This document shows positions 5,853 through 29,722 of a stretch of DNA of 36,228 bases, one piece after another; positions within the stretch are counted from its first letter, which is position 1; each line of letters begins with the position of its first letter. Where the stretch lies: assembly GCA_016211165.1 (NCBI GenBank), contig JACQSU010000003.1, positions 1 to 36,228 on the forward strand. Direction: 5' to 3'. Source of the stretch: Candidatus Woesearchaeota archaeon. GTDB lineage: Archaea > Nanobdellota > Nanobdellia > Woesearchaeales > JAGWAF01. The notes below the pieces were generated by a model. The model did not search any database and was not told the DNA's origin. It saw nothing but the letters and a program-made list of their open reading frames with translations. Position numbers and translations under genes: made by a program.

Positions 5853-5928
5853 TCTGAATCCCGCCGACCCGTCAGTGGTGGCAGGATTTCGATGATGAGG
5901 GTACTTATAGGTGTTCACGACCGTAGAA

Positions 5929-6875: not shown

Positions 6876-6977
6876 CGACGAAGGTATCCACCCCTGGTAT
6901 AAATATGCTGTGTGGTCACTAGATGGTCATTTCGCCCGATGCCCTCTTTTTATGTCTCTCTCTCTCTCCGCCTAGGT

Positions 6978-16204: not shown

Positions 16205-16957
16205 TTAGAATCGTCCGATCGTGGCCAGGCGATAAGAATTCAAGTGCTGTTTGGCTTTACGGATATGTTTGTTAGATCCCTGCCTGCGTGCTGCGTACTG
16301 ATCTGCTGTTCGTTCCTCACGATCAAGTTCTCGTTCAAGTCCGAACCAGGCGACAGGTGAAATGAGCGCGGCGTGTCGTGAGAGTGCAAGCATGCTCGAT
16401 TTTTGTGCGATATGACCAATCTCATGAAGAAGCACGGCTTCGGTTTCCTTTTTGGACAAAAGATCCATCAGTCCTACCGATACGAAGATGCGTGGTGTGC
16501 CAAGTGAGAAGCTAAACGCGATGGGTTTGGCAGTGTCAATCACGTGTAGGGCAGGTGAAGTGATCCGAGCGTCCAGTGCAGCAGAGGCGACAAATCGTGC
16601 GAGCGATCCGTTCTCAAGGCGTCGTGAGCGTTGTGCCATCCTTCGCACAAAGACAAATGGCGCGCATAGCAAGCTTACCAGGATGCTGATTCCTGAAGTG
16701 ATGATCGCAAGCCATATAGTGTGTCGTGCAGTCTCACACGAATCCAACATCGCGGCGCATCCGCCGTATGTTCCATACAACACCACGGGAAAGAGCAGAA
16801 AGAAGACGTGCAAGTACAGAGCTCCGAGTTTTGTCTTGGTGGCCTTGCTTCCAAAGAATGCCGCAAGGGCAAGCAATGCAAACACAAGCGATCCGATGGA
16901 GAGCCATAATTTGAGTGGATCTGTGACAAAGCTTTGCACGCATTCCCCGCACATCAT
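16205..16957 (-). CDS. BlaR1/MecR1-like M56-family membrane metalloprotease (sensor-transducer) without an extracellular sensor domain
   Basis: 250 aa with 4 predicted TM segments and an HEXXH site, AVLLHEIGHIAQ. N-terminal MMCGEC (CxxC) and GGCAAMLDSC. ATGA overlap with the blaI-like gene. Confidence 0.75.
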   Translation of the reverse strand: MMCGECVQSFVTDPLKLWLSIGSLVFALLALAAFFGSKATKTKLGALYLHVFFLLFPVVLYGTYGGCAAMLDSCETARHTIWLAIITSGISILVSLLCAPFVFVRRMAQRSRRLENGSLARFVASAALDARITSPALHVIDTAKPIAFSFSLGTPRIFVSVGLMDLLSKKETEAVLLHEIGHIAQKSSMLALSRHAALISPVAWFGLERELDREERTADQYAARRQGSNKHIRKAKQHLNSYRLATIGRF

Positions 16958-17313
16958 TTGCGAAACCTCTCGTGGAAGTAACTTACGGCTGTGGATCCAA
17001 ATCGATTAATGAGGCCATTCACGACGTCCTCGACAACAGACTTCTCAAATTCCTTCCGGTTCTTGGTTGGGAAGTAGATATAGCGCACGCCTCCGCGTGC
17101 AGTCTCCATGTTCCGCTCGACGAGTCCTTTGAGAAAGAGACGGTCCAAGATGACAGCGACGGAGCTGACTGCGACGTTGCGTTTTCCTTTGAGTTTTGCG
17201 TGTATCTCTCGGACGCGCAGCGACTTGTCCGGCCATAGTATCGAGATGACATCGTTCTCCAGTGGTGAGAGGATATCGCTATTGGATTTCACCGCACGCA
17301 CTGCGTCTTTCAT
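16954..17313 (-). CDS. BlaI/MecI/CopY-family winged-helix repressor
   Basis: 119 aa. LSPLENDVISILWPDKSLRVREIHAKL...VAVSSVAVILDRLFLKGLVER is typical of Penicillinase_R. There is no C-terminal CxC metal motif, so it is BlaI-like rather than CopY-like. AGGAGGG Shine-Dalgarno. Confidence 0.8.
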   Translation of the reverse strand: MKDAVRAVKSNSDILSPLENDVISILWPDKSLRVREIHAKLKGKRNVAVSSVAVILDRLFLKGLVERNMETARGGVRYIYFPTKNRKEFEKSVVEDVVNGLINRFGSTAVSYFHERFRK

Positions 17314-17345: not shown

Positions 17346-17360
17346 TTACGAAGATTGTAA
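17346..17360. promoter_or_regulatory. TTAC-N7-GTAA dyad (candidate BlaI-type operator) at the blaI-like promoter
   Basis: TTACGAAGATTGTAA, directly adjacent to the TATA-like TTCTATAAATAT (17333-17344). The flanking 12-mer AAAGCATTACAA (minus strand) is identical to 19273-19284. Confidence 0.45.
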
Positions 17361-17365
17361 TGCTT

Positions 17366-18094
17366 TTATCGGTGTTCAAGATATTCTTTGTCAAGCAATC
17401 CTCTGCGAACCCAGTCCTGCATCACAGAGTCATCTAGCGCAGGTTCAGGAGTCACGATCGCAGGATATTTACCACGCTCGATTGTCGACAGATTCCGCGC
17501 CAGGACATCAAGTGTTGTTGCTTTGAATTGGTCTTCCGGAGTCATCACAAGTCCATACCGTTCAAGAAAGCCATCGATTGTGTGGAGATGCTGCTCTTTT
17601 TTGTCAGGCTCGATCGTGATGTGGTAGACTTCAAGGATGTATCCGAATGATGCGGCGCCGCCCCACATATGCTGTATGCTGCTAATCAATTCTGTGCCAA
17701 TGTGTTTTGCATGGTGCTTGGTGACGCGCTTTGCCCACCAGGGATCGGGGTGGATGCCAAGGTCTTCGATGGCGCAGGCAATGTATTGTGCATAGTGAGC
17801 ATCGATCACTCGCGGATCCCTCACGCGCATATTGGCGAAGATGTCGCCGTGCTCGCGTTTGTTGCTTAGCATCTCGTATGTATCCCACGTGTTGGGCTCG
17901 GGTCCCATCCAGCGGATTCGTAGGTCGCCATTGTTTTTGGCAAGTGATCCGAATCGATGCGTGAGGATATAGTAAGTGTCGATGCGCCGCCACTGCTGGT
18001 CCAATGCTGTAAGGAGGCGTTGGTACTGTGCAAGATTGAGACGCGCGCGGCGTTGGACTTGGTATTTCTTGTCCCTCATAGTTGTGTTTGTCAT
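17366..18094 (-). CDS. hypothetical protein, weakly CYTH-like
   Basis: The likely start is MTNTTM at 18094, with a CCTATATTC TATA-like box about 22 nt upstream. Patterns DTYY, LRIRW, AKRVTKHH and GYILEVY loosely follow CYTH strand motifs, but the ExExK position reads QVQRR. Confidence 0.55.
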   Translation of the reverse strand: MTNTTMRDKKYQVQRRARLNLAQYQRLLTALDQQWRRIDTYYILTHRFGSLAKNNGDLRIRWMGPEPNTWDTYEMLSNKREHGDIFANMRVRDPRVIDAHYAQYIACAIEDLGIHPDPWWAKRVTKHHAKHIGTELISSIQHMWGGAASFGYILEVYHITIEPDKKEQHLHTIDGFLERYGLVMTPEDQFKATTLDVLARNLSTIERGKYPAIVTPEPALDDSVMQDWVRRGLLDKEYLEHR

Positions 18095-18152
18095 AGTTTT
18101 GGGGAGACGAATATAGGCTCTTAATGGTTTCCATAACATTCTTAAAGATTAG

Positions 18153-18167
18153 TTACATCAGTTGTAA
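18153..18167. promoter_or_regulatory. TTAC-N7-GTAA dyad in the divergent region between the hypothetical gene and ccdA
   Basis: TTACATCAGTTGTAA (TTACA/TGTAA arms), 21 nt upstream of the ccdA ATG. Confidence 0.45.
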
Positions 18168-18187: not shown

Positions 18188-19180
18188 ATGAATATGGATC
18201 TGAATAAGCTCATGCTTGTCTTGCTTGTGATTCTGGCTGTTGTAGTGGCATCCTCCCCAGTCCTTGCCTTGGAGCTTCCCACGTCGCTTCAGAACCTGCA
18301 GTCGCAAAATGAGCAGAACACCCAGCGATTTGTGGCAACCATTACGTTTTTTGTCGCATTTCTTGCTGGCATTATCAGCTTTGTGAGTCCGTGCATTCTC
18401 CCGGTCTTTCCTGCGTTCTTTGCGTATGCGTTTACAAAAAAGCGTGACTTGAAGAAAGCCACTCTTGCCTTCTCTGCCGGGATGATTGTGGTAATGGTCG
18501 CAATCGGTTTGCTTGCAGCATATGTTGGCCGTCTTCTCTTAGACGAGTACCGCGCGACTATTGTCTTTTATCTCGGATTCCTCTTTATTGGTCTTGGCAT
18601 GGTCATCGCCTTGGGCCGGACATTTGGTGTTGCATCACAAAGGAAAATCAAGATAGACTCATTATGGTCCATCGCAGGGTTTGGCGCGCTCTTTGGCATC
18701 GGCTTCACGCCGTGTATTGGCCCGATTTTTGGCGGCATTCTTGCGATTGCGATGGTGCTTGGTGACTATTTATGGTCCGGTCTCTTGTTCGCATTCTATG
18801 CGATAGGCATCTCATTTCCACTCTATTTCCTCTCTGTATATTATGACAAATGGGAGTTGCACAAAAGGCCCTGGATGCGCGGCAAGACTTTCACGATCAA
18901 TCTTGGCAAGAAACGCATTGAGACACATTCCCACAATCTGCTCTCGGGAGGCATCCTCATCTTCTTTGGATCCCTCTTCGTCTTGCACAATGGCACATTT
19001 CTCTTTAATGCGCTCAGTGGTGGATACTTGAGTCACTTGTGGTTTATGTATAATGACGCGCTTCTGCAAGGCAGTCCTGCGTGGTATTGGGCATCGCTTG
19101 TGGTCTTTGTTCTCGCCATACTCTTTGTGGCAAAATCGTTGAAGTCGTCCGGAGGGCGGCATTATAGCAAATCTCGTTGA
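18188..19180 (+). CDS. ccdA: CcdA/DsbD-family thiol:disulfide electron transporter
   Basis: 330 aa, polytopic. Both conserved Cys motifs are present: FVSPCILPVFPAF and FTPCIGPIFGGIL. Confidence 0.88.
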   Translation: MNMDLNKLMLVLLVILAVVVASSPVLALELPTSLQNLQSQNEQNTQRFVATITFFVAFLAGIISFVSPCILPVFPAFFAYAFTKKRDLKKATLAFSAGMIVVMVAIGLLAAYVGRLLLDEYRATIVFYLGFLFIGLGMVIALGRTFGVASQRKIKIDSLWSIAGFGALFGIGFTPCIGPIFGGILAIAMVLGDYLWSGLLFAFYAIGISFPLYFLSVYYDKWELHKRPWMRGKTFTINLGKKRIETHSHNLLSGGILIFFGSLFVLHNGTFLFNALSGGYLSHLWFMYNDALLQGSPAWYWASLVVFVLAILFVAKSLKSSGGRHYSKSR

Positions 19181-19185
19181 TTATG

Positions 19186-19255
19186 GAGGACTTTGAAAAG
19201 CTCGAGCGTAACGAGGGGTTATTCAAAGTTCTCAATTCGCTATTAAACGATTTTT
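19186..19255 (+). terminator. hairpin cassette after ccdA, related to 13473-13596
   Basis: GAGGACTTTGAAAA...TTCAAAGTTCTC, followed by ATTAAACGATTTTT. Confidence 0.5.
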
Positions 19256-19278
19256 CGTAAGGTATAAATACTAAAGCA

Positions 19279-19293
19279 TTACAAGATTCGTAA
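19279..19293. promoter_or_regulatory. TTAC-N7-GTAA dyad at the promoter of the MVGGC/Trx/CopA operon
   Basis: TTACAAGATTCGTAA, 8 nt downstream of GGTATAAATAC. A second TATA-like element, CTTTATATA, is at about 19318. Confidence 0.45.
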
Positions 19294-19372
19294 CAGTTTA
19301 GGCATCGTCGGGACAACCTTTATATACCGACGCCAAATGTCGAGAACAAGACAAGAGGGGTGAACTATCACA

Positions 19373-20104
19373 ATGGCAAAAAAGGAATCATCGGTTGAGT
19401 ACACATTCAATATTCCAACACTCGTCCTCATTGCGTTGTTTGCAGGAATCATCATATTCAACCAATACCAGATTATGACATTTGGTATAAGCGGCCCGGG
19501 CACATTCTCATTGTCAGGGCGAACAAACCTTGCGCTTCCACCCGGAAGCCAGGGGACGACACTGGGCCCGGTCTTTAATTCGGATGGCCGTACAACAAGT
19601 GTCAAGGAGCTCCCAACAATTTCTGCGACTCCTGATCCTGCTCCGAGCGGCGACCCTGTGCAAGACGCGATCAACAGATACGTCCCAACAGGAACACCAG
19701 AATACGGCGCTGCCTTGGGTGTCTCATTTGATGATCCAATCAATTCACTTAACAAGCTCGCGCGTTACGACCAGACTGAACAACTTGATACGCCAGAAGA
19801 GAAAGCTCGCTATGACAAGCTCGCGTATGGGTTTAGCTGTGACTTCTGTTGTGGAGGTCCGAATTCAGTGACGCACATCTCAAACTGTGGTTGCTCGCAC
19901 GCAGCTGCGTGGCGCGGTGTCTTCAAGTACTTTATCAAGAACAATCCAGAGTACACCGATGAACAGCTGATAGGCGAGGCGACTCGGTGGAAGACGCTTT
20001 GGTATCCAGGTCCTATGATGAAGCGGATCCTCTCTGAAGGATCAAGCGGGTCAGTGGACGCATCGACACTATCACAGCTCCCCGGCATGGTCGGCGGCTG
20101 CTAA
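19373..20104 (+). CDS. membrane-anchored extracytoplasmic Cys-cluster protein ending in LPGMVGGC
   Basis: 243 aa. N-terminal TM IPTLVLIALFAGIIIF. Cys cluster CDFCCGGPNSVTHISNCGCSH. The final residues are LPGMVGGC-stop. GAGGGGTGA Shine-Dalgarno. Confidence 0.7.
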   Translation: MAKKESSVEYTFNIPTLVLIALFAGIIIFNQYQIMTFGISGPGTFSLSGRTNLALPPGSQGTTLGPVFNSDGRTTSVKELPTISATPDPAPSGDPVQDAINRYVPTGTPEYGAALGVSFDDPINSLNKLARYDQTEQLDTPEEKARYDKLAYGFSCDFCCGGPNSVTHISNCGCSHAAAWRGVFKYFIKNNPEYTDEQLIGEATRWKTLWYPGPMMKRILSEGSSGSVDASTLSQLPGMVGGC

Positions 20105-20126
20105 GAGGGACGAAGTCCCTCTTTTT
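20103..20126. terminator. 9-bp hairpin plus T-run between the two MVGGC genes
   Basis: AAGAGGGAC-GAA-GTCCCTCTT followed by TTT. It overlaps the stop codon of the upstream gene. Confidence 0.4.
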
Positions 20127-20139
20127 GGAGGAATCAAAA

Positions 20140-20361
20140 ATGGAAAAGAACACGATTGTCGCGGTCGTTCTGGGCGTGCTTGTCCTAGTTTCATTAGTGC
20201 AAGCATTCCAGCTCTACGGCCTTAAGAATTCAGTGTCCGGCGGGGCGACGGTTCGCCAAGTGTCAGCTGCGGCTCCACTAGCAAGCGCTCCTGCATCGTC
20301 AGGTGCGCCTGCGCTTCCTGCGAGTCTGAACAACTTGCCAGAGATGGTCGGCGGCTGTTAG
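20140..20361 (+). CDS. small membrane-anchored protein ending in LPEMVGGC
   Basis: 73 aa from ATG 20140, with GGAGG 9 nt upstream. TM IVAVVLGVLVLVSLV, an Ala/Ser/Pro linker, then LPEMVGGC-stop. Confidence 0.65.
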   Translation: MEKNTIVAVVLGVLVLVSLVQAFQLYGLKNSVSGGATVRQVSAAAPLASAPASSGAPALPASLNNLPEMVGGC

Positions 20362-20424
20362 ATTTTTTTACTTTCAATCTATTTGTAGCTAAGAGCAGCT
20401 GCAAACTACCAAAGGGGGATACTC

Positions 20425-21546
20425 ATGAAGTCCAATGTCGATCACCGATTGATGATTAACACGCTCTTGCTTGTGCTCACGTTCTTTGTGCTCCTCAATT
20501 TGTTCCTGACCTATGATCTTCGTCAGGAAGTCGCCGAGCGCGTCCGCTTGGATGCGCTTTCCCGTGTTCCTCCGATGATGGAGCTTGTTGTGATCTCTGA
20601 TGATTCCTGTGTCGATTGCTTTAATATCTCTCCTGTGGTTTCCCAGATAAAGGCGATGAATGTAAATCTCACCAAGGAGTCTGTGCTTCAATATGGTTCC
20701 GATGAAGCGAGGGCGCAAATCGAGAAGTATAGTGTACAAAGTATTCCTTCAGTCATCCTTCTGGGCGCTCCGGAGACATTTTCATTAAGCGGATTCAAGC
20801 GCACGAAAGATGCTCTAATCCTAAGCGAAGTGCGTCCAATCTACATCGACGCGACGACAGGTCAAGCAAAAGGGCGCCTTGAGATGACGCTCATTAACGA
20901 TCCATCCTGCAAGGGTTGTTTTAACATCGGCATCGTTGCAGGTCAGATCAAGCGGTTGACCTCGGTGCGCCAAGAGATTACGCTCTCATCTGCGAGTGCG
21001 CAAGCAAAGAAGCTCATCGCCAAGTACAATATCACGAAGTTGCCGGCGCTTATCTTAAGCGAAGACACGTCGGTGTATGCTGCCATTGCAAGTGAGTGGG
21101 CCAATGTGGGCACGGTTGAATCCGATGGGATGTATGTCCTGCGCGAACTTCCGCCGCCCTATGTTGATGTCGCAACAGGTCAAGTCGTGGGGCGTGTGAG
21201 TGTAACATATCTCACAGATGTGTCGTGCAAGGCGTGTTATGATGTTTCCATTCACAAGGCTGTGCTTGCGCAATTGGGCATTGCTCCTGCCATCGAGTCA
21301 AGGATGGATGTTGCAAGTGCGCAAGGTAAGATGCTGGTCGCGAAGTATGGAATCGAGTCTGTTCCAACAGTGATCCTTAGTAGGGACGCTAAGGCCTTTG
21401 ACGTTATGAGCTCTGTGTGGGAGCAAGTGGGTACCATCGAGTCCGATGGCAGCTATGTATTCCGCAATCTAGGCGCCATCGGTGGCGTGACGTATCACAA
21501 TCTGTCCAGTGGCGCTGTACAAAACGCGACCCTGCCGCAGCAGTGA
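20425..21546 (+). CDS. membrane-anchored protein with three tandem thioredoxin-fold CxxC repeats
   Basis: N-terminal TM, then three units of about 110 aa, each with D-x-S-C-x-x-C (CVDC, CKGC, CKAC) and a (K/E)KY(S/N/G)(V/I)xx(I/L/V)P(S/A/T)(V/L)IL cis-Pro-like block. Confidence 0.8.
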   Translation: MKSNVDHRLMINTLLLVLTFFVLLNLFLTYDLRQEVAERVRLDALSRVPPMMELVVISDDSCVDCFNISPVVSQIKAMNVNLTKESVLQYGSDEARAQIEKYSVQSIPSVILLGAPETFSLSGFKRTKDALILSEVRPIYIDATTGQAKGRLEMTLINDPSCKGCFNIGIVAGQIKRLTSVRQEITLSSASAQAKKLIAKYNITKLPALILSEDTSVYAAIASEWANVGTVESDGMYVLRELPPPYVDVATGQVVGRVSVTYLTDVSCKACYDVSIHKAVLAQLGIAPAIESRMDVASAQGKMLVAKYGIESVPTVILSRDAKAFDVMSSVWEQVGTIESDGSYVFRNLGAIGGVTYHNLSSGAVQNATLPQQ

Positions 21547-21580
21547 AGTAGAGGGATTGGCCCTCCTGGTGGTGACGAAT

Positions 21581-21610
21581 GGGGGTTCAAAAGGGGGTTT
21601 CCCCCTTTTC
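21581..21610. repeat. G4-hairpin element (family copy)
   Basis: GGGGGTTCAAAAGGGGGTTTCCCCCTTTTC, between two same-strand genes of the operon. Confidence 0.75.
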
Positions 21611-21617
21611 AAGAGTG

Positions 21618-22001
21618 ATGGTGGCGATCCTTGTATGGGTCGCTGTGCTTGCCAGTCTGTATGCCGTCATCGGCATTGATGATACGGATCGGCAGAACTG
21701 CCCGTACAAATCTGGTGGCAATCCCAATGCGTCACTGCGCATTGCCTACTTTGGGAATCCATTCTGCATTTGGTGTCTCATTCTTGAGCCCAAGCTTGAG
21801 CGTCTTGTTGAGCAAAAGGGGCGGTCGTTTTATATCCAGTATTTTGATGATAGGTATTGTGTGAATGAGGCAGAGGCCTTTGGCGTGCAGGCAGTGCCGT
21901 TTTTTGTGTTTAACAAGAGTGGTGTGATCACGCCGCATGCAGGGTATATTGAAGAGAGTGATATGCGCAGTATTATTTGTCAAGAGACAGGTGATTGTTA
22001 A
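21618..22001 (+). CDS. membrane-anchored thioredoxin-like protein (CIWC)
   Basis: Start taken at MVAILVWVAVLASLYAV, because the track start at 21579 would put the hairpin repeat inside the coding region. FGNPFCIWC...VQAVPFFVF Trx fold. Ends ...QETGDC-stop. TAATG overlap with the next gene. Confidence 0.7.
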   Translation: MVAILVWVAVLASLYAVIGIDDTDRQNCPYKSGGNPNASLRIAYFGNPFCIWCLILEPKLERLVEQKGRSFYIQYFDDRYCVNEAEAFGVQAVPFFVFNKSGVITPHAGYIEESDMRSIICQETGDC

Positions 22002-22648
22002 TGACAGGCAAGACTACGGATATCATGATGATGGCCGTCCTCGTGGTGCTCGTGGTTATGCTGTCCGCAGGCGCGGTCTTTATTGATGATCTGATTCCCT
22101 CACCATCCTTGCCAAAGGCAAGCGCCAAAGTTGATCCGTCGCTGGCACGGGTTTCGTTCGGGTCCAATCCTAATGCCTCCGTGCATATGCTCGTCTTTGG
22201 TGATTATGAATGTGCAAATACAAAGGTAGATTGGGAGATGATCAAGCGTATTCGATCTGATTATGGTAAAAAGATCAATCTTGTGTGGGTGCACACGCCG
22301 CTGGATGTTCATCCTCATTCTCAAGCAGCGGCGCGTGCCGTTGTCTGTGCGCAGGCGCAAGGCAAGTTCTGGGAGTTTAGTGATGTGCTCTTTGCGAATC
22401 AGGATCGTCTTGATGATGGCGCGCTTTTAGAGTATGCGGCAAGGATCGGTCTTGATCAGACAGTGTTCCGCTCCTGCTTCTACTCTTCACGTGCAGAGAA
22501 CAAGGTGCGTGATGATCTTGTCTTTGCTCTTGGTCATGGCATCCGCGGCACGCCGACGTACGTGATTAGTGGCCGATGGTTTGAGGGTGTGCAGGATGAG
22601 GGGTTCTTGCGAGGGGTCTTGGATTCTGCTGTGGAGGCAGGACAATGA
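22001..22648 (+). CDS. DsbA/BdbD-like thioredoxin-fold protein with the active site changed to C-A-N-T
   Basis: VFGDYECANTKV occupies the position where the family has DxxCPxC. HPHSQAAARAVVCAQAQGKFWEF and GIRGTPTYVISG match the DsbA-like family. N-terminal TM anchor. Confidence 0.8.
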   Translation: MTGKTTDIMMMAVLVVLVVMLSAGAVFIDDLIPSPSLPKASAKVDPSLARVSFGSNPNASVHMLVFGDYECANTKVDWEMIKRIRSDYGKKINLVWVHTPLDVHPHSQAAARAVVCAQAQGKFWEFSDVLFANQDRLDDGALLEYAARIGLDQTVFRSCFYSSRAENKVRDDLVFALGHGIRGTPTYVISGRWFEGVQDEGFLRGVLDSAVEAGQ

Positions 22649-23409
22649 ATCTCGCGCAAGTCGCTTTGAGGGGTGCGCGGTTGAGTGATCCGTTTTCTTT
22701 GTGGAGGCCGATTGTGGGTGATGTGGGTTTTTTGTTTGCGCTTGGTTTTGTTGGCGGTGCGATTGGTAAGAAGATAGAGGCAGTGCTAATCGCAGCAGGG
22801 GCGTCCATTGCAAGGCAGAGTCAGGGTACGGATGCGGTGGTGCTTACAGCGATGGATAAGTCACTTCTATGGCAGGCATTGGGTTTGCATCTGGTGCTAG
22901 TGCTTGTGATCTATGTTCTGTTTTGCGCGTTTGCAAGTATTGGCTGGTGGTGGGCGGTGAATAGAAAGGGTGTCATCACTATGTCGCTTTATGTGCGCAG
23001 GTTCTTTGGAGTGCATGCCCTATTGATTCCTCTGGGGGTTATCGTCGATGCATTGGGATTTTGGGCAGAGCATCAGAGGCTTGCAGAGCCAGCATCGATG
23101 ATGACGACTCTTTTTATAGGCGGCTATAGTGCCGGTTTGCTTATGCTGGGGATTGTTTCGGTAATCGCTTCTGTGAGGATCTTGCGCAGTGCTGCGTGGA
23201 TAGCGTGGAAGGAGGCTGTTGTCTTGCTCTGTTCTCCACGCAAGTCGCTTGTTCCAGTGGGGCTTATTGTGTTGGGATTCGGGATCATCAATGCAGGTAT
23301 ATGGCTGGCTTCTGCCCTTGATCCTCGCTTTGGCATTGTGGTTGGTATTGGTGTTTTATTTCCTTATCTTGCATTCACTCGACTCTTTCTCGTGGAGGTG
23401 TTTGGATGA
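22645..23409 (+). CDS. polytopic membrane protein, unknown family
   Basis: 254 aa with about 6 hydrophobic segments. ATGA overlaps at both ends. I recognise no motif. Confidence 0.6.
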   Translation: MNLAQVALRGARLSDPFSLWRPIVGDVGFLFALGFVGGAIGKKIEAVLIAAGASIARQSQGTDAVVLTAMDKSLLWQALGLHLVLVLVIYVLFCAFASIGWWWAVNRKGVITMSLYVRRFFGVHALLIPLGVIVDALGFWAEHQRLAEPASMMTTLFIGGYSAGLLMLGIVSVIASVRILRSAAWIAWKEAVVLLCSPRKSLVPVGLIVLGFGIINAGIWLASALDPRFGIVVGIGVLFPYLAFTRLFLVEVFG

Positions 23410-24104
23410 ATCCTGGCAAACTCATGGTCGGCGTCCTCATTCATGCAATTCTTATTGTCATTCTTGCGCTTATCGGGTCGGCGTCAGTCACTGCGTGGCA
23501 GTCGTTCTTTGGTGGCGTTCTGCCCCAGGATCTGGTCAGTAGGCTGTGGATGATCGTGTTTGTCACCGTGGTGTTCTTTGTGCCGCAGTGGTTTGCGTTT
23601 TCAACAGTATCCTATGTCGCGATTTCCTACCTGTCCTATGGCGTGTGGTGGCGTCGCGGCTCGTACGTTCGTTTCCTAAAGACGCACGCGTGGTTTCTTC
23701 TCTTGTTGATGGGATCCTTCATCCTGTGGGATGTGCTTGGTGGGTATGTGCGTGAGTCCTCGGTAATCATCTGGGGCTTTGTTGGAATCGCGGCCTTGGG
23801 TGTGATCTATCTGTATCTGCATCATCGTCGATTGCGTCATTTCGTTGATGTCGCGCACAAGGAATGTGTCTGTATTCGGAAGGCGGTTCCCTGGATCGCC
23901 CTGCACTGGACTGGTGGAATCGTTGCACTTTCGCTCATTGCATTTGTCCTTCCGATAAAGGAATCCTGGCTTGAGATGTTGGTTGTGAGCGGTGTGTTTG
24001 GCGCTGTGTTGACTTTGGATACAGAGCGCTTTCGGGTTGTGATGCAGACGCATGATATGAAAGGGTCGGAGCGCGTTTCGCACACGGCGAGGGGCAGAAG
24101 ATAA
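23406..24104 (+). CDS. polytopic membrane protein, unknown family (CVC motif)
   Basis: 232 aa with about 6 hydrophobic segments. Loop HKECVCIRK. ATGA overlap with the upstream gene. copA starts 30 nt downstream. Confidence 0.6.
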   Translation: MNPGKLMVGVLIHAILIVILALIGSASVTAWQSFFGGVLPQDLVSRLWMIVFVTVVFFVPQWFAFSTVSYVAISYLSYGVWWRRGSYVRFLKTHAWFLLLLMGSFILWDVLGGYVRESSVIIWGFVGIAALGVIYLYLHHRRLRHFVDVAHKECVCIRKAVPWIALHWTGGIVALSLIAFVLPIKESWLEMLVVSGVFGAVLTLDTERFRVVMQTHDMKGSERVSHTARGRR

Positions 24105-24133
24105 GTAATATATAGGATGCGGAGAGTCTTACG

Positions 24134-26317
24134 ATGATGAAGAAAACGTCGATTAAGATTACAGGTATGCATTGTGCAAGTTGCGCTGGTAAAATCGAGA
24201 AGGCGCTCAAGGCAAAGCCCGGAGTTGTCGTGGCATCGGTGAATTTCGGCACCGAGACTGCGCAAGTCGAGCATGATGTGATTAAGAGTAGTGTGCAGGA
24301 TCTCATTGAGGCGATCAAGGCGCAGGGATATGGTGCTTTTGGACAGGGTGAGCCTGGTCATGCAGAGTCTATGAATCATGAAACGCATGATGGGCAGGAT
24401 CTAAAAATCAAGCTTCTTGTCTCGATCCTTCTGACATTGCCCATTGTCTTGTGGACGATGACGCCTGTGGTGTATCCTCTCCCATTTGCAAAGGAGTGGG
24501 TGTTGTTAGTCCTCGCGACTCCTGTGGTCTTGTGGGGTGGCTCCTTTCTCTTTGTGAACACTGTAAAGGCGATTCGTCGGATGTCTGCTGATATGGACAC
24601 GCTTATCGCGATCGGTGTCGGCGCCGCCTACCTATATAGTGTTGCGACAACAGTGGGTCTTGTTGCAGGTCCCCAGTTCTTTGAGACTGCGTCGGCTTTG
24701 GTGTGTTTTATCATTTTGGGCAGGGTTCTTGAGGCGCGGGCGCGTGGAAAGACTAAGCAGTCATTGCAAAAGCTTGTTGAGCTTGCGCCAAAGGAGGCGA
24801 CGGTGTTCCGGGATGGTAGACAAATCAAGATTCCGGTTAAGGACATCATTGTAGGTGATTTGGTGATTGTCAAGCCTGGTGAGAAGATTCCCGTGGATGG
24901 TATCGTTTCAAAAGGTCATTCATCTGTGGATGAGTCGATGATTTCTGGTGAGAGCATTCCAATTGAGAAAAAGCCAGGGGATGCTGTGATTGGTTCGACC
25001 ATCAACAAGTCAGGATCCTTTGCATTCACTGCGCAGAAGGTGGGTAAGGATACCGTGCTTGCGCAGATAATCAGGATGGTTGAGGAGGCCATGTCAAGTA
25101 AGCCGTCAGTCCAGCGACTTGCTGACAAGGTCTCATCGATCTTTGTCCCAGTAGTCTTAGTCCTTGCCATTCTCACATTCCTGTTTTGGTATTACATAGC
25201 TGCGATGGGTTTTGTCTTTGCGCTCACGCTTGCGATCACGACGCTTGTCATTGCGTGTCCATGCGCATTAGGGCTTGCGACGCCGACTGCTGTGATGGTA
25301 GGTACTGGTGTTGGCGCCGAGCATGGTATTTTGATCAAGTCAGGTGATGCGCTTGAGAATGTGGGCAAGCTCACGACGATTGTGCTTGATAAGACAGGCA
25401 CGCTTACTCTTGGCAAGCCGGAAGTGACGGATGTAATCGAGCTCGCATCAAAGCGTGAGGACATTCTTAAGTTTGCGGCGATTGGTGAGGTTAAGTCAGA
25501 GCATCCTTTGGCTGATGCGATTGTGCAGGCGGCAAAGTTGGATAATATTGTGATTCCTGAAGCGACCTTTTTCCGCAATCACGAAGGCCTTGGGATCGAG
25601 GCGTCCTGGCGTGGCAAGCATGTGCTTGTTGGCAATCTCCGTTTGATGAAACAGCATCGTATTCCCACTGACGATTCCTTGGAGCGTCTTGAAGCTCTTG
25701 AGTCCGAGGGCAAGACCGTGATGTGTGTTGCGATTGAGAATAAGCTTGCTGGTCTCGTCGCTGTGGCTGATGTGCTCAAGGCTGATGCAAAGGCCGCTGT
25801 TGATGGGCTTACGTCCTTGGGTCTTGGAGTGATGATGCTTACTGGTGATAATGAGCGTGTCGCGAATGGCATTGCGAAAAAGGCAGGCATTGATTCCGTG
25901 ATCGCGCAGGTGCTTCCAAAAGACAAGCTTGAGAAGATCAGGGAGTTGCAAGCGCAGGGCAAGCGTGTGGCAATGGTTGGTGATGGGGTCAATGATGCTC
26001 CAGCTCTGACGCAGGCTGATGTGGGAATTGCCATTGGCGGGGGGACGGATATCGCAAGGGAATCAGGGGACATTGTGCTTATCAAGAGTAATGTGAATGA
26101 TGTCGTGATGGCAATCAAGCTCTCGCGGCTGACCTTGCGCAAGATTTATCAGAATCTGTATTGGGCCTTTGGGTATAATGTGATTGGCATTCCTGTGGCA
26201 ATGGGTGTGCTGTACCCTGTGGGTATCCTGCTTCCTGCCGAGGCCGCTGGTCTTGCGATGGCTCTCTCGAGCGTCAGCGTTGTGACGAATAGTTTACGTA
26301 TTAGGAAGTTTGCCTGA
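24134..26317 (+). CDS. copA: copper-translocating P1B-type ATPase
   Basis: 727 aa. N-terminal HMA domain GMHCASC, TM6 CPC ([11 protein letters not shown]), DKTGTLT, MLTGDN and [10 protein letters not shown]. Confidence 0.95.
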
Positions 26318-26442
26318 TGGAAAAACATGTAATGTCGGTCCTGAGCCGATTTTCTAGTATACACATTTCCACACCAAAAAGTATTTAAATAGCGTTTCGG
26401 GTGGATTCTGTAACATTACGCTCTCTAGAGAGGTGATATATA

Positions 26443-26940
26443 ATGACTGAAGAGAAAGGTTATGGGTTGCTCATATCAGCAATCGTCTCCATCGTGGCGA
26501 TTGTTGGTATGGTTGTGCTCTTCTCAAGTGGAGGAAGCAGCGGCCAGGTAGTGAGCAGATCAGGCGGGTATGGAGGTCATCCTACCTTCGGAACCAGCGA
26601 CCGCGTTGCGGGCAATGAGCGGTTCTTCTTCGTCGAGCCTGGATTTGTGGACGACTTTGGCATAGTATGCGAGGGCATCGCGAGCAGGGATGGCACAACT
26701 GGTGTGACCACCTGCGGTCAGCTTGGCGACAACTGGGGTCGAATGCTCTCGACAAAGTCCGAGAGGCTTGCGCGTAGCGCATCTCAAGGATACTTTGATG
26801 AGTACTCCGGTGTGACTGGCTCTGGCGAGATGCGCACAACTGCCTCGATCGAGTACGGCAGTCCTGCGGGTGATCTTGCTGAGCACGGTGTGCCAAGTGA
26901 GAGTCAGACCCAGTACGGCCGTCCGATGACGATGGAGTAA
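26443..26940 (+). CDS. N-terminally anchored Gly/Ser-rich protein, unknown function
   Basis: 165 aa. AGAGGTG Shine-Dalgarno. TM GLLISAIVSIVAIVGMVVLF. Confidence 0.5.
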   Translation: MTEEKGYGLLISAIVSIVAIVGMVVLFSSGGSSGQVVSRSGGYGGHPTFGTSDRVAGNERFFFVEPGFVDDFGIVCEGIASRDGTTGVTTCGQLGDNWGRMLSTKSERLARSASQGYFDEYSGVTGSGEMRTTASIEYGSPAGDLAEHGVPSESQTQYGRPMTME

Positions 26941-27015: not shown

Positions 27016-27363
27016 ATGGATCTTGCTGATTATGCTGTGATTGCAGTTGCGCTTGTGGCTCTTATTGGTGTGTTCCAGTCGATGAGTGGCGCAACAGGCA
27101 ACGCGATCTATTTCCCTGCAAAGGCGCTTGGCAATGCCGTGTGTACCGAGAGTGGCGCATGCGATGCTGGCTGGCAGTGTTGTGATAAGGGTTCGTGCCA
27201 TTGCGCGTATGATGATGATGCAAGACTCTACCAGGCAGTGATGCGTGATGTGGGAAGTTCCCAGTGCGTGACTGATGAGCAGGGTTTGTTGCATTGTGAG
27301 CCGTCATCTCCTGCGATGGGCCGTCCACGTGATGAAACAACAGAGGGAATTTTTGTCCGATGA
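27016..27363 (+). CDS. small anchored Cys-rich (9 Cys) extracytoplasmic protein
   Basis: 115 aa. TM, then SGATGNAIYFP. Contains CTESGACDAGWQCCDKGSCHC...QCVTDEQGLLHC. Confidence 0.5.
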   Translation: MDLADYAVIAVALVALIGVFQSMSGATGNAIYFPAKALGNAVCTESGACDAGWQCCDKGSCHCAYDDDARLYQAVMRDVGSSQCVTDEQGLLHCEPSSPAMGRPRDETTEGIFVR

Positions 27364-27791
27364 AGCCGCAAACAGTGACTGGCGTGTTCGCGATCCTCGC
27401 GATGCTTGGGATGCTCTTGTTTGGCTCTTCGATCACAGGTGCCGCTGTTTCTGAAGTCGGCCGGTGTCGTCACGTTCTCAATCCAAGTGGAGTGATCTCG
27501 ACCGAGTGTGAGTATGAGGGTCCAGTCGCTCCAATGTTCCGGTTGCGTCCTGGTGCGATTCTCTTTGTGCCAAGTGGTGTTCAGCAGTGGGATGATTTTG
27601 GTTCGGGAAGCACGTATGATCGTCGGGTGTTCCGGCAGGCAGTGCGTGATCGGATGGGTTTTGCAGGTGGAACGCGTATTGGCGTGATTTCACAAAGCGG
27701 TGAGAATCTGGTCTTTGAGAACCCGGAGAGGATCCGCAAGAATATGCAGCGAGAGGCTGCTGCACAGGATCGATCGCCAGTAGTGTACTAG
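27360..27791 (+). CDS. small secreted/anchored protein, unknown function
   Basis: 143 aa. ATGA overlap with the upstream gene. Signal-like FAILAMLGMLLFGSSITGAAV. Confidence 0.5.
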   Translation: MKPQTVTGVFAILAMLGMLLFGSSITGAAVSEVGRCRHVLNPSGVISTECEYEGPVAPMFRLRPGAILFVPSGVQQWDDFGSGSTYDRRVFRQAVRDRMGFAGGTRIGVISQSGENLVFENPERIRKNMQREAAAQDRSPVVY

Positions 27792-27833: not shown

Positions 27834-28676
27834 ATGCGCATAAGATGGTTGCTGATGGTTGTTCTTGCCGTGGGCTGTGTGTCTGCATATCCTGCCCCTG
27901 TGGGTTACGTCAATGACTTCGCCGATGTCTTGGATTCTGCCATGCGTGTTGAGCTCGAATCCAGGCTGGTAAGAATAGAGCAGAACTCATCTGCCCAAAT
28001 CGCTGTCGTTACGATCCCTTCCCTCGACGGCGAAGATATCGATTCGTATGCTGTGAAACTCTTCGAAGTGTGGAAGATCGGCAGGGTCGGCGTGGATAAT
28101 GGTCTTCTTATCCTCGTTGCTCCGCATGAGAAGAAGTGGCGCATTGAGGTGGGGTATGGTCTCGAGGGGATTGTCACGGATTCTATCTCTAGTCGAGTAG
28201 GCCGGGCAATGGTTCCCTATTTCAAGGAAGGAAACTTCAGCGCAGGAATTGTTGCTGGTCTTAATCTTCTTGAGCCCCTGCTTCGCGGTGACGAGGTTCC
28301 CTTTGCCCAAGATGTCCCTTCGGCGCTTGGCGAGGCCTGGGTGATTCGCAATGCATTTGCGATCCTTGCCATCCACTGGTTTGTGTGTGCGATCTGCTTT
28401 TCGTGGTACCAATCCCTTGGCAAGAAGAAACGAAAGCAGGTGCTCATCGCCCTTCCGTGGGCACTCGTAGTCTTTATTGCCTTTCTCTCTCTTGTTTTTG
28501 GGGTCGTGCTTGCGGTCTTCACTCTGATCTGGTTCGTGTCGTCTTTTGGCAATCGTGGGCGTGGTGCAGGAGGATGGTATGGTGGTGGCGTTGGAGGGAT
28601 GGGTGGCTCATCCGGCGGGTTTGGAGGGTTTGGGGGTGGTGGTTCCGGTGGTGGTGGATCGAGCGGGGGATGGTGA
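27834..28676 (+). CDS. TPM-domain (TLP18.3/Psb32/MOLO-1, YgcG-like) protein with TM and a Gly-rich tail
   Basis: GYVNDFADVLD...QIAVVTIPSL...VDNGLLILVA...RIEVGYGLEG, then TM segments, then the ...GGGGSGGGGSSGGW tail typical of the family. Confidence 0.85.
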   Translation: MRIRWLLMVVLAVGCVSAYPAPVGYVNDFADVLDSAMRVELESRLVRIEQNSSAQIAVVTIPSLDGEDIDSYAVKLFEVWKIGRVGVDNGLLILVAPHEKKWRIEVGYGLEGIVTDSISSRVGRAMVPYFKEGNFSAGIVAGLNLLEPLLRGDEVPFAQDVPSALGEAWVIRNAFAILAIHWFVCAICFSWYQSLGKKKRKQVLIALPWALVVFIAFLSLVFGVVLAVFTLIWFVSSFGNRGRGAGGWYGGGVGGMGGSSGGFGGFGGGGSGGGGSSGGW

Positions 28677-28899
28677 CGCTTATGTCGACGATAATGCTTC
28701 GTTCTCGGACAAAGTCCAATGCCTTACGGATATGTTCGGAAGAGATGCTTCGTTTGAGTAACTTGCGTCGTACTTCAAAAAGCGTGATCGCGGAGCAGGA
28801 AACGCGTGTGTCTGATTCAATGAGGGTCGTACAGATTGGTTCGCTATCAAAAAAGTAACCTAGCCACACCGACGTGTCGAGGAATTTAGAATCGATCAT
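28519..28899 (-). CDS. vapC: PIN-domain (VapC-like) toxin, probably degenerate at its 3' half
   Basis: The N-terminal MIDSKFLDTSVWLGYF...AITLFEVRRKL is PIN-like. After about residue 74 the ORF runs antisense through the Gly-rich tail of the TPM gene (His/Arg/Thr-rich) and lacks the distal TxDxDF block. Confidence 0.5.
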   Translation of the reverse strand: MIDSKFLDTSVWLGYFFDSEPICTTLIESDTRVSCSAITLFEVRRKLLKRSISSEHIRKALDFVRERSIIVDISVTIPRSIHHHRNHHPQTLQTRRMSHPSLQRHHHTILLHHAHDCQKTTRTRSE

Positions 28900-29113
28900 G
28901 CTTGTCTCGCAGGTCCTTGAGTATCGCGTTCATGGGGATCTTTGTCTTGAGAAATCCCTTCAGGCTCAGGGGTCTGGTGTGGGCTATCATGCGTCTGATT
29001 GTCTCATCGTAGCTTGCCAAGTGGTATTGTTGGCGCAGCCGTTTGAGTGTGGTCGCAGTCTCAGCGCTGACTTGGATGGCGGTCATCATAAGGGCTATTT
29101 CGCCGAAACTCAT
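28886..29113 (-). CDS. vapB: antitoxin (VapB-like, RHH-type) partner of the PIN ORF
   Basis: 75 aa. AIQVSAETATTLKRLRQQYHLASYDETIRRMI. It overlaps the PIN ORF start by 14 nt. Confidence 0.5.
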   Translation of the reverse strand: MSFGEIALMMTAIQVSAETATTLKRLRQQYHLASYDETIRRMIAHTRPLSLKGFLKTKIPMNAILKDLRDKHDRF

Positions 29114-29140
29114 TTAAACAGGAGTCGCTCTTCAACTGCC

Positions 29141-29722
29141 ATGGCAAAATCCTCGGAATCAAAAATGTGGCTCTACGTCCTTGGCGGCGTGCTCTTGCTC
29201 GCTCTGATTCTCGTCGGCTGGGTTGTGGGCGCGTACAATTCCCTTATTTCGCTCTCCCAGGGTGCTGATAAGGCGTGGTCGAATGTCGAGACGGATTATC
29301 AGCGCCGCTTTGATCTGATTCCTAATCTTGTCGAGACAGTCAAAGGAATCGTGAAGCAGGAGCAGACTGTGTTTACCGAGGTGGCCCAGCTCCGATCGCA
29401 GTGGGCAGCGGCATCAACCCCTGATGAGAAGATGCGTATCGCGCAAGCATCGGATAGCGTGCTCGGTCGCCTTATTGCCGTAGCAGAGGCGTATCCACAG
29501 ATCAAATCCAATGAGAACTTCCTCGCGCTCCAAGATCAGCTTGAGGGCACAGAGAATCGTATCACAGTTTCACGTCAGCGCTACAATGAGGCAGTGACTG
29601 CTTACAATATCAAGACGATGCGTGTACCGTCAAATATCATCGCGAATCTCTTTGGCTTTGGGGAAAAGGAGCTCTTTAAGGCAGCAGCAGGCAGTGAGCA
29701 GGCGCCGGGCGTCAAATTCTAA
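29141..29722 (+). CDS. lemA: LemA family membrane protein
   Basis: Start at MAKSSESKMW (the track ORF extends upstream over the vapB antisense). NSLISLSQGADKAWSNVETDYQRRFDLIPNLVETVKG...AYPQIKSNENF...RYNEAV. Confidence 0.9.
   Translation: MAKSSESKMWLYVLGGVLLLALILVGWVVGAYNSLISLSQGADKAWSNVETDYQRRFDLIPNLVETVKGIVKQEQTVFTEVAQLRSQWAAASTPDEKMRIAQASDSVLGRLIAVAEAYPQIKSNENFLALQDQLEGTENRITVSRQRYNEAVTAYNIKTMRVPSNIIANLFGFGEKELFKAAAGSEQAPGVKF

Follow-up and report, generated by a model that had tools for sequence, protein, structure and literature searches.

The window analysed here is positions 1 to 36,228 of contig JACQSU010000003.1 from a Candidatus Woesearchaeota archaeon, and the system in question is a set of predicted extracytoplasmic thiol proteins encoded together with an electron transporter of the CcdA type and, in this genome, a putative copper-exporting ATPase, CopA. 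Nine open reading frames (ORFs) lie on the plus strand between 18188 and 26317; we label them p1 (ccdA), p2 to p8 and p9 (copA). Genes for a repressor and a membrane protease lie just upstream on the minus strand, and three operator-like palindromes (O1 to O3) are found among these genes. The features are listed below.

16205 to 16957, minus strand: M48/M56 (BlaR1-like) membrane zinc protease, 250 residues; Peptidase_M48, HExxH
16954 to 17313, minus strand: winged-helix repressor of the BlaI/MecI/CopY family, 119 residues; Penicillinase_R
17346 to 17360, unstranded: operator-like palindrome O1, TTACGAAGATTGTAA, 33-47 nt upstream of the blaI-like start
17366 to 18139, minus strand: cytoplasmic protein of 257 residues, function unknown, between blaI and ccdA and divergent from ccdA; no Pfam match
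18153 to 18167, unstranded: operator-like palindrome O2, TTACATCAGTTGTAA, 21-35 nt upstream of the ccdA start
18188 to 19180, plus strand: CcdA (p1), 330 residues; DsbD_TM
19279 to 19293, unstranded: operator-like palindrome O3, TTACAAGATTCGTAA, upstream of p2
19373 to 20104, plus strand: p2, 243 residues; transmembrane (TM) anchor, Cys-rich globular domain, LPxMVGGC tail
20105 to 20126, plus strand: hairpin GAGGGAC-GAA-GTCCCTC then T5, between p2 and p3, read from the sequence
20125 to 20361, plus strand: p3, 78 residues; small protein with C-terminal LPEMVGGC
20425 to 21546, plus strand: p4, three thioredoxin-fold modules, membrane-anchored
21579 to 22001, plus strand: p5, membrane-anchored thioredoxin-like protein, CIWC
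22001 to 22648, plus strand: p6, membrane-anchored protein of the DsbA/BdbD/ScsC class, C-A-N-T
22645 to 23409, plus strand: p7, polytopic membrane protein, no family match
23406 to 24104, plus strand: p8, polytopic membrane protein, no family match
24107 to 24114, plus strand: TATA-like box AATATATA between p8 and copA, about 20 nt upstream of the copA ATG
24134 to 26317, plus strand: copA (p9); TIGR01511, HMA, CPC/YN/MALSS motifs
26334 to 26360, plus strand: terminator-like hairpin with T-run just past the copA stop codon

A preliminary description of this DNA had listed nine genes at 18188 to 26317 with their motifs. All nine ORFs were found on the plus strand, and the overlaps it reported are present: TAATG between p5 and p6, and ATGA between p6 and p7 and between p7 and p8, followed by a measured gap of 29 nt from p8 to copA. 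It had the linked genes begin at 21618. The start of p5 is more likely to be at 21579, because a charged N-terminal region then precedes the TM helix, as in the p5 orthologue. For p3, a start at the ATG at 20140 is more probable; this ATG comes after a GGAGG and gives a protein of 73 residues. The blaI-like and M48/M56 genes also overlap, by 4 nt. This pair, with its matching palindromes, begins just upstream of the coordinates proposed and had been missed.

The 192 nt gap between ccdA and p2 contains promoter-like and operator-like elements, with O3 flanked by TATA-like boxes at 19262-19270 and 19319-19326, and ccdA is therefore probably its own transcription unit. Given the AATATATA box between p8 and copA, copA may also have its own promoter, from which a leaderless copA transcript could arise separately. 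Co-transcription of copA with the upstream genes is likely but not certain. The hairpin after copA is the probable end of the transcription unit; this terminator-like match was the sole result kept from a bacterial sigma-70 promoter scan, which is irrelevant for an archaeon. The hairpin between p2 and p3 could be an attenuator or an RNA-stability element. A T7 run was also observed right after the p3 stop codon (20362-20372), and T-runs of at least five follow p3 in 34% of the related loci described below, against a background of 12%. The hairpin and T-runs together may bring about partial termination, raising expression of p2 and p3 relative to the downstream genes.

A genome scan with one genome per species identified 386 genomes with a relative of p2, and the best 80 loci were analysed. 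These are species-level DPANN loci, numbered L001, L008 and so on, and many of the contigs end early in the locus; all counts out of 80 refer to this set. The genes p2, p3 and p4 lie in the same order on one strand in almost all 80 loci, and we refer to them as the cassette. A p3 gene was found in 78 loci, p4 in 66, CcdA in 39-49 and BlaI/M48 in 32-35, the repressor gene being paired with M48 in 32-34. For the 21 loci that extend at least 6 kb to either side of the cassette (full loci), the corresponding numbers are 21, 20, 14 and, for BlaI-like plus M48, 15. Genes like p5 occur in 6 of the 80 loci and genes like p6 in 10; p7 and p8 were found outside the window at L008 only. The only close relative is a contig that contributed both L006 and L008. 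It keeps the whole array from p2 to p8 and copA, together with downstream genes, at 40-78% protein identity, and full-length orthologues of p6 to p8 followed by copA were found only there (p2 78% identical) and in the window. At L001 the thermosome and GluRS context is that of the window, but only blaI-M48, ccdA and p2-p3-p4 are present. Comparison of the window with L006/L008 and L001 therefore indicates that the eight-gene operon is a lineage-specific extension of a widespread three-gene cassette, and the window is one of two known cases with the p5-p8 extension.

The eight-gene operon of the preliminary description thus does not hold as a conserved unit, as p6-p8 with copA are limited to the window and this relative and L001 lacks p5-p8 and copA. 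The neighbourhood conservation it had proposed to check was found for p2-p3-p4, usually with CcdA and BlaI/M48; p5-p8-copA proved lineage-specific. A more fitting description is that of a regulon, spread across DPANN and governed by a BlaI-type repressor, which comprises CcdA, a triple thioredoxin and two terminal-cysteine proteins, with CopA as an accessory.

A set of 5.8 billion proteins contained 239 relatives of p2, all unnamed, from sources named as Woesearchaeota, Micrarchaeia and Aenigmarchaeota. An exhaustive profile search of 1.84 billion proteins gave 312 representatives of the family at 50% identity, and wherever the source name is informative the source is DPANN. Cassette records L008-L011, L013, L016 and others are titled 'uncultured Methanosarcinales archaeon'. 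These titles look like automatic mis-assignments, the same family being found elsewhere in Woesearchaeota, Nanoarchaeia, Micrarchaeia and Aenigmatarchaeota. A neighbourhood scan of metagenome contigs anchored on CopA returned only four distant loci, at 36-37% identity, and was uninformative.

The order of p2-p3-p4 across about 80 species, the operator palindromes common to the genes, the start/stop overlaps at p5-p6, p6-p7 and p7-p8, and the retention of the whole array in a relative with only 40-78% protein identity all argue against a chance same-strand run of genes for membrane and secreted proteins that form no functional unit. Such a run could be suspected from p7 and p8, which have no detectable relatives save one orthologue each, and from ccdA and perhaps copA having promoters of their own. 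We consider it very improbable, and at the level of sequence the comparative data already contradict it.

The two proteins that characterise the cassette are p2 and p3. Protein p2 consists of an N-terminal TM anchor, a globular domain and a C-terminus ending ...LPGMVGGC, followed by a TAA stop codon. Residues C156, C159, C160, C172, C174 and H176, within the motif F[ST]C[DE][FY]CCGxP...CGCxH, are invariant. An AlphaFold2 (AF2) model made with 23 sequences has a predicted local distance difference test score (pLDDT) of 84.1, with the core above 90, and a predicted template-modelling score (pTM) of 0.72. No fold match to this model was found in the PDB by Foldseek (best E=1.0), and the p2 family profile gave no match to PDB sequences at E<=1. 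In p3, a TM/signal segment that ends in VQAFQL is followed by an A/P/S/G linker of low complexity and, at the C-terminus, LPEMVGGC; the stop codon is TAG. In p3 homologues the TM/signal segment ends (V/F)-Q-A-x-Q-L and the linker is poorly conserved. The sequence M(V/Q)GGC forms the C-terminal end of all p3 homologues (82/82) and of 49/86 p2 homologues; only about 1.5% of ORFs among the other cassette neighbours end in Cys. As p2 and p3 share both the motif at the end of the TM segment and the LPxMVGGC tail, we infer that they have the same partner.

The view that several components are undescribed was borne out: p2, p3, p7 and p8 match no family in Pfam or NCBIfam, and the searchable literature yielded no use of 'MVGGC' in this context. 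By sequence and model, p2 and p3 are signature proteins without a known family, and the predicted fold of p2 appears to be new. Two kinds of explanation for the tail were tried and rejected. Selenocysteine insertion or read-through after MVGGC does not fit the stop codons, which are ordinary TAA and TAG, and the tail does not qualify as a sortase LPxTG signal, an archaeosortase PGF-CTERM signal or a lipobox, as the Cys is the last residue and a C-terminal TM helix is lacking.

Variants of both proteins occur in other loci. One p2 homologue is fused to an FKBP prolyl isomerase; long p2 homologues are otherwise without a useful Pfam match. Variants of p3 carry MMxHH before the tail or have Cys/His-rich cytoplasmic N-termini. 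A second type of cassette was observed at L055:740-3000, L063:18876-20605 and L085:16718-19718, with a membrane-tethered winged-helix regulator, a p2 paralogue and an MMxHH variant of p3 (MVGGC or QGGC tail), to which an HCPLC membrane protein and a small CHxxC membrane protein are added. The motifs of this second cassette suggest metal binding. A C-terminal Cys is also present on rhodanese-domain proteins near the cassette, which end ...GEFGC, ...ELGC or ...TFGC (L039:9239-9871, L048:7200-7820, L059:5216-5833 and L075:237-851).

CcdA matches DsbD_TM (PF02683) with 45.2 bits (cutoff 27.1) and the solved CcdA of Thermus (PDB 5vkv) with E=1.5e-13. Its only two cysteines, the catalytic residues C69 in FVSPCILP and C176 in FTPCIGP, are in Pro-Cys pairs inside predicted TM helices, and both positions are Cys in 93% of 61 sequences. 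In profile scans DsbD_TM was the sole significant domain, and no periplasmic thioredoxin (Trx) or Ig-like domain was found. By these features CcdA is a minimal membrane thiol-disulfide electron transporter of the DsbD superfamily and an ordinary member of its family, and like others in the family it would pass electrons from cytoplasmic thioredoxin to Trx-like partners outside. The proteins p2 to p6 each have one N-terminal TM segment and are therefore predicted to face outwards, in agreement with the earlier suggestion of extracytoplasmic thiol proteins fed by CcdA.

The three modules of p4 are homologous repeats (hhalign probability 99.4-100%). Each has a CxxC and a cis-Pro, and these residues (C62/C65/P108, C162/C165/P207 and C268/C271/P314) are invariant in 30 sequences. 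Pfam scores, with cutoffs in brackets, are 28.3 bits (24.8) for Thioredoxin_3, 27.5 (23.5) for Thioredoxin and 27.8 (27) for Thioredoxin_2. The closest solved relatives, found with the family profile, are archaeal protein disulfide oxidoreductases (PDO; PDB 1j08 and 1a8l, E~1e-8), and TIGR02187 was also matched. The single-sequence AF2 model of p4 has a pLDDT of 36 and is unusable, so that assignment of the Trx fold rests on sequence. Protein p5 scores 21.5 bits against Pfam Thioredoxin, under the cutoff of 23.5; its alignment keeps FCxWC, its C-terminus is ...TGDC, and it is an accessory part of the cassette.

Protein p6 matches DSBA (PF01323) with 46.4 bits (cutoff 25.6) and Thioredoxin_4 with 41.8 bits, and its relatives in the PDB are DsbA (4pwp, E=7e-30), BdbD (3eu3) and ScsC (4gxz, E=1.5e-17; 6mhh; 6nen). 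Its active site is monothiol, C-A-N-T, with C-P-N-T in the orthologue; in the p6 alignment CxxT/S is found in 4 of 12 sequences and CPxC in the other 8. The cis-Pro (GTP) is conserved, with T184 and P185 invariant. A protein of 156 residues with the motif YGAMDWCK[YF]TQ was observed between p3 and p4 in the L013-L031 group (cluster 7, 28 loci; for example L021:4152-4622). We take it to resemble the Trx-like domain fused to bacterial VKOR, but with CxxT, and it is weakly similar to p6 (E=5e-5). From its CxxT and its likeness to p6, a monothiol Trx-fold protein is therefore a recurrent accessory of the cassette.

For p7, a search of 5.8e9 proteins returned only p7 itself; this word-indexed search missed the L008 orthologue, which is 40% identical, and so has low sensitivity. 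The Cys residues of p7 are not conserved in that orthologue. In p8, the sequence H-x-E-C-x-C (residues 151-156) follows the basic run after TM4, and the CxC is kept in the sole orthologue. On these two sequences, it could be a cytoplasmic metal site beside CopA.

Other protein families recur around the cassette. A cluster of heterogeneous proteins of unknown function (cluster 2, cl2) is found beside it in 62 of the 80 loci, sometimes preceded by a palindrome (for example L009:6110-7232, L082:4176-4937 and L087:4010-5810), and includes small CHxxC proteins with four TM helices and proteins of about 250 residues with CDxCGM and HxH. TlpA/AhpC-type lipoproteins with CSSC recur, and a thioredoxin-reductase-like gene is near the cassette in six loci. 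None of the cl2, YtkA-like, TlpA-like and NTF2-like families was found in the window, the sole match being the weak similarity of p6 to cluster 7. In one Woesearchaeota genome a full-length Lgt (PF01790, E=1.5e-79) was observed near the cassette, at L079:8170-8943, and several neighbouring proteins there have bacterial-type lipoboxes.

CcdA with anchored Trx-like proteins is the classical reducing branch of System II, a role reflected in the name of the Pfam domain, and the genes could on that ground be assigned to a System II-like cytochrome c maturation, with the remaining genes as unrelated neighbours. We give this almost no credence. No ResB/CcsB, ResC/CcsA or Ccm gene was found in the window or among annotated cassette neighbours elsewhere, the sole CxxCH in a long ORF of the window lies in an alternative frame overlapping a TPM gene, and the cassette is confined to DPANN archaea, which to our knowledge lack respiratory chains. 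The preliminary description had likewise seen no cytochrome c maturation genes, and indeed neither Ccm/Ccs genes nor a credible CxxCH protein is present in the 36 kb. Roles of CcdA beyond cytochrome c are already well known, and its presence is therefore less unusual than was implied.

The repressor matches Penicillinase_R (PF03965) with 57.9 bits (cutoff 22.6). It contains no cysteine, and an alignment of 37 homologues has no Cys column. The operators of BlaI, MecI and CopY have TACA/TGTA half-sites in common; BlaI is inactivated by proteolysis, and CopY senses copper with C-terminal CxC motifs (PMC7253601). The absence of Cys from the repressor therefore excludes a CopY-type mechanism and makes a BlaR1-type mechanism the natural reading. 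The protease scores 36.9 bits against Peptidase_M48 (cutoff 20.3) and 24.1 bits against Peptidase_M56, under the cutoff of 31; for its orthologue at L006 a PF05569 match is recorded, unmarked. It has three N-terminal TM helices, a CX6C (C67, C74) in the loop between TM2 and TM3, and HExxH plus a Glu in the cytoplasmic part. Among 35 sequences, C67 and C74 are each Cys in 91%, and H178, E179, H182 and E215 are conserved in at least 85%. A domain scan found no penicillin-binding (transpeptidase-like) domain, the 250-residue protein ending after the protease domain. By the positive-inside rule the CX6C loop should face outwards, and the protease is a candidate sensor-transducer.

The 15-bp palindrome TTACR-N5-YGTAA was found at exactly three positions in the 36 kb of the window, where 0.02 occurrences are expected, and all three sites are in promoter regions, of the blaI-like gene, ccdA and p2. 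As the pattern was derived from these sites, the other loci provide the actual test. The strict pattern was found 60 times in 0.98 Mb of related loci, and for 53 of these sites a gene starts no more than 150 nt downstream. The genes concerned are blaI (29), p2 (29), cl2 (10), ccdA (3; L001, L008 and L014), YtkA-like (3) and a TlpA/AhpC-like lipoprotein (2). Typical sites in the related loci read TTTACAnnnnnTGTAAA, and lie about 30 nt before p2 and 12-66 nt before blaI. In the window as in related genomes, the sites preceding blaI, ccdA and the p2 operon are of the TTTACA-N5-TGTAAA type. The 257-residue protein encoded between blaI and ccdA (17366 to 18139) is 37.5% identical to its L008 orthologue and is kept only in this close relative; its membership of the module is uncertain.

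With the regulatory genes in place, the array could also be imagined as an autoregulated circuit around a secreted peptide with signal or antimicrobial activity, in which p3 would be cut by signal peptidase after V-Q-A and end in cysteine, p2 and a PedC-like p4 would serve as maturation or carrier proteins, and the protease with its CX6C loop would be the receptor. The N-terminus of p3 is signal-peptide-like, with (V/F)-x-A conserved before Q-L, p4 homologues show faint PedC-like Pfam matches, the receptor-protease and repressor genes are adjacent and autoregulated, and the hairpin and T-run elements after p2 and p3 could raise expression of these two over that of the downstream genes. We nevertheless find such a circuit improbable: genes for a transporter, a leader peptidase or immunity are not conserved alongside the cassette, the p3 linker is of low complexity and poorly conserved, only the TM end and the tail being kept, and the same tail is carried by the large, anchored p2. 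Furthermore, the PedC-like matches are no more than faint, and PedC-type helpers promote disulfide formation, whereas CcdA gives reductant.

CopA matches TIGR01511 with 620.2 bits (cutoff 397) and HMA with 54.8 bits, and the E1-E2_ATPase and Hydrolase domains are present. It has the motifs GMHCASC in the N-terminal HMA domain, ACPCALG (CPC), GYNVIG (YN) and MALSS, by which it is a P1B-1 Cu(I)-exporting ATPase and an ordinary member of its family. A CopA gene lies within 10 kb of the cassette in 10 of the 80 loci and in 5 of the 21 full loci, where by our estimate about 2% of loci would be expected to have one. At L087, p2-p4, two cl2 genes and genes for a CHxxC membrane protein, an NTF2-like protein, a YtkA-like protein and CopA form a tight same-strand array, and L082 has a similar array from p2 to copA. 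At L085 and L069 copA follows blaI-M48 on the same strand, at L081 a copA fragment is upstream of p2, and at L014 copA is adjacent to p3 and convergent with it. The intervening genes differ between the arrays, which are therefore independent juxtapositions. The link to copper export proposed earlier thus has comparative support, with contiguous arrays in unrelated lineages. As judged from these sequences, the copper link is real but accessory, CopA having joined the module independently in several lineages. Neighbours of the cassette in other loci include CDxCGM proteins, membrane proteins with CHxxC, proteins with HCPLC motifs, and YtkA-like proteins. Like the MMxHH and Cys/His-rich variants of p3, the rhodaneses ending in GC, the TlpA/AhpC-like lipoproteins and the thioredoxin-reductase-like genes, such neighbours hint at metal handling.

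Three ORFs for small secreted proteins were observed directly downstream of copA in the window, at 26443-26940, 27016-27363 and 27360-27791. They have signal anchors and belong to no family; the product of 27016-27363 has 115 residues, eight of them Cys. All three are kept in L008, and they could be substrates of the thiol machinery.

Taken together, we put at roughly 0.5 the probability that the module is a stress-inducible pathway working on the outer side of the membrane, both to hold cysteines in the reduced form and to buffer thiol-binding metals, and that it is typical of DPANN archaea, with a copper exporter added in this lineage. In unstressed cells the repressor would occupy the three operators and hold blaI-M48, ccdA and the p2 operon off. 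A thiol-reactive signal, possibly an oxidant but most likely a soft metal such as Cu(I), would modify the CX6C loop of the protease, which would then inactivate the Cys-free repressor as BlaR1 does BlaI. Reducing equivalents of cytoplasmic thioredoxin would be carried by CcdA to p4 with its three Trx modules, and p4 would maintain in the reduced state both the p2 Cys cluster and the cysteines at the ends of the MVGGC tails. The tails may act as tethered thiols, either binding Cu(I) with Met thioether, Cys thiolate and C-terminal carboxylate as ligands, or resolving oxidised or metal-bound cysteines at the surface. In the lineage of the window, p5, p6, p7/p8 and CopA would be induced together with the upstream genes, joining export of cytoplasmic Cu(I) to protection of surface thiols. 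What the sequences show directly is the gene content, the motifs, their conservation, where the operators lie and the association with CopA; which signal acts, in which direction and order the relay runs, what the tails do and that copA is co-transcribed we infer.

Several points weigh against it. CopA is absent from most cassette loci, and the background of about 2% with which its frequency near the cassette can be compared is our own estimate for a single-copy gene in a genome of about 1 Mb. No palindrome precedes copA in the window or in the 0.98 Mb of related loci; in the window copA has a putative TATA box of its own, and at L008 the gap between p8 and copA is 78 nt. The palindrome pattern was defined on the three sites of the window and only then tested in other loci. 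The CX6C pair of the protease could be structural, and the Cys cluster of p2 could be a structural Zn site or a disulfide knot. The evidence for metal binding by the tail is indirect: ordinary p3 linkers have no Met, His or Cys outside the tail, and conservation of the whole LPxMVGGC fits enzyme recognition as well as metal chelation. That electrons run through p4, p2 and p3 in the direction proposed is an assumption based on CcdA, whose polarity is known.

Much of the same evidence can be accommodated by general extracytoplasmic thiol maintenance or oxidative repair, in which CcdA feeds p4 and, through it, p2, p3, p5 and p6, copper is one of several insults, and the position of copA is secondary and lineage-specific. 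The pathway would be like those of CcdA-Etrx-MsrAB, DsbD-DsbC/G and ScsB-peroxiredoxin in bacteria, and its clients would be surface and secreted proteins of an organism that lacks cytochromes. The conserved core has no metal transporter, and TlpA/AhpC lipoproteins with CSSC, genes like that of thioredoxin reductase and Trx-like proteins of the monothiol kind are found repeatedly around the cassette. In addition, p4 is similar to protein disulfide oxidoreductases, FKBP is fused to one p2 homologue, and Cys-rich small secreted proteins are encoded just past copA. CcdA-type proteins also have roles beyond cytochrome c: PMC7034828 concerns the streptococcal MsrAB pathway, and PMC3322552 treats ScsB as a distinct DsbD class with envelope substrates. 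A pathway of repair alone is at odds with the enrichment of CopA near the cassette, including contiguous same-strand arrays in several unrelated lineages, with the Met/His-rich variants of p3 and neighbours with metal-type Cys motifs, and with the window operon, which contains no Msr gene and no recognisable peroxidase. A dedicated repressor also argues against a housekeeping role in folding. We regard repair alone as possible but doubtful.

A more specific proposal can be made only tentatively. Proteins p2 and p3 may represent a new class of surface proteins with a tethered terminal cysteine, specific to DPANN archaea and without a bacterial homologue, for capture of Cu(I), other soft metals or oxidants. 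The LPxMVGGC arm would dock in the domain with five Cys and one His, the triple thioredoxin and CcdA would recycle the arm, and the system would be switched on by a BlaR1-like protease that has an outward cysteine pair and not an antibiotic-binding domain.

The module resembles the Scs system of Salmonella, Proteus and Caulobacter in that a transporter of the DsbD superfamily feeds envelope thiol proteins of the DsbA and TlpA classes with a link to copper stress, and p6 is a sequence relative of the ScsC structures 4gxz, 6mhh and 6nen. It differs in that the CcdA of the window is minimal, without the N-terminal periplasmic domain of ScsB; p6 has CxxT, whereas ScsC has CxxC; ScsA is absent from the window; the regulator is of the BlaI/BlaR1 type; the system is archaeal; a CopA gene is in the array; and p2, p3 and the triple-Trx p4 have no Scs counterpart. 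The preliminary description had proposed an archaeal analogue of the Scs/CopA copper-stress systems. The comparison holds as an analogy and no further, with an ScsB-type N-terminal domain and ScsA absent and a monothiol CxxT in p6: the module would resemble Scs in function and is not homologous to it as a system, and the evidence for a copper role here is the genomic association with CopA.

The regulatory genes resemble BlaI/BlaR1 and MecI/MecR1, with a Penicillinase_R repressor and an HExxH membrane zinc protease, divergent from their targets, and palindromic TACA/TGTA operators that include an autoregulatory site. Unlike BlaR1, the protease of the window has 250 residues and an outside CX6C loop in place of the penicillin-binding domain, the half-sites are separated by N5 rather than N2, the targets are thiol and metal proteins and not beta-lactamase or PBP2a, and the host is archaeal. 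The copYZAB operon of Firmicutes, controlled by CopY/CopR, also has a repressor of the same family and a TACA...TGTA palindrome, and ends in a Cu(I) P1B ATPase. The repressor of the window, however, has no Cys and hence no CxC for Cu(I) sensing, no CopZ is present, and the spacing is N5, compared with a spacing of 2 in the cop box KACANNTGTA (RNYKACANNTGTMRNY). Sensing is presumably delegated to the protease.

In the CcdA-Etrx and CcdA-StoA reducing pathways, electrons from CcdA pass to membrane-anchored Trx-like proteins. The window is like CcdA-Etrx-MsrAB of streptococci and CcdA-StoA of Bacillus in this respect and in the absence of a cytochrome c maturation context, and differs in having no Msr gene, an acceptor with three PDO-like modules, and the MVGGC-tail proteins. 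Like PDO (PDB 1a8l, 1j08 and 2hls), p4 has tandem Trx-fold units with a CxxC in each. PDO is cytoplasmic and has two units, whereas p4 is anchored, is predicted to face outwards and has three; the similarity is weak (E~1e-8).

The DPANN archaea, abundant and for the most part uncultured, are episymbionts whose genomes are very small. A literature search found nothing describing a CcdA/disulfide system in DPANN archaea or an archaeal BlaR1/M56 protein in connection with copper. Extracytoplasmic reducing pathways and BlaI-type switches are already known; the signature proteins p2 and p3 and the sensor input are new. As the cassette is present in several hundred species-level genomes, it is likely to be important for life at the cell surface, and its signature proteins have no family, structure or literature. 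If correct, the proposed pathway would explain how surface thiols are protected, and exported copper dealt with, in cells that have no cytochromes, quinones or outer membrane. BlaI/BlaR1 signalling, best known from antibiotic resistance, would gain a redox or metal input, and a new cysteine-rich fold would be introduced along with a short conserved C-terminal tag, MVGGC. As a marker of the regulon, the palindrome can be followed through metagenomes and metatranscriptomes.

Elsewhere in the window, ORFs of 710 residues (3786-5918, minus strand) and 380 residues (6912-8054) match no Pfam family. A protein with a TPM domain and a C-terminal tail rich in Gly (27834-28676) is encoded beside a LemA protein (28874-29722); TPM and LemA are a commonly paired couple. 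The LemA ORF as listed starts too early, overlapping on the minus strand a PIN-domain gene (28519-28899) and the gene for a partner of 75 residues (28886-29113), and the true start is probably the Met near 29140. The PIN-domain gene and its partner look like a toxin-antitoxin pair.

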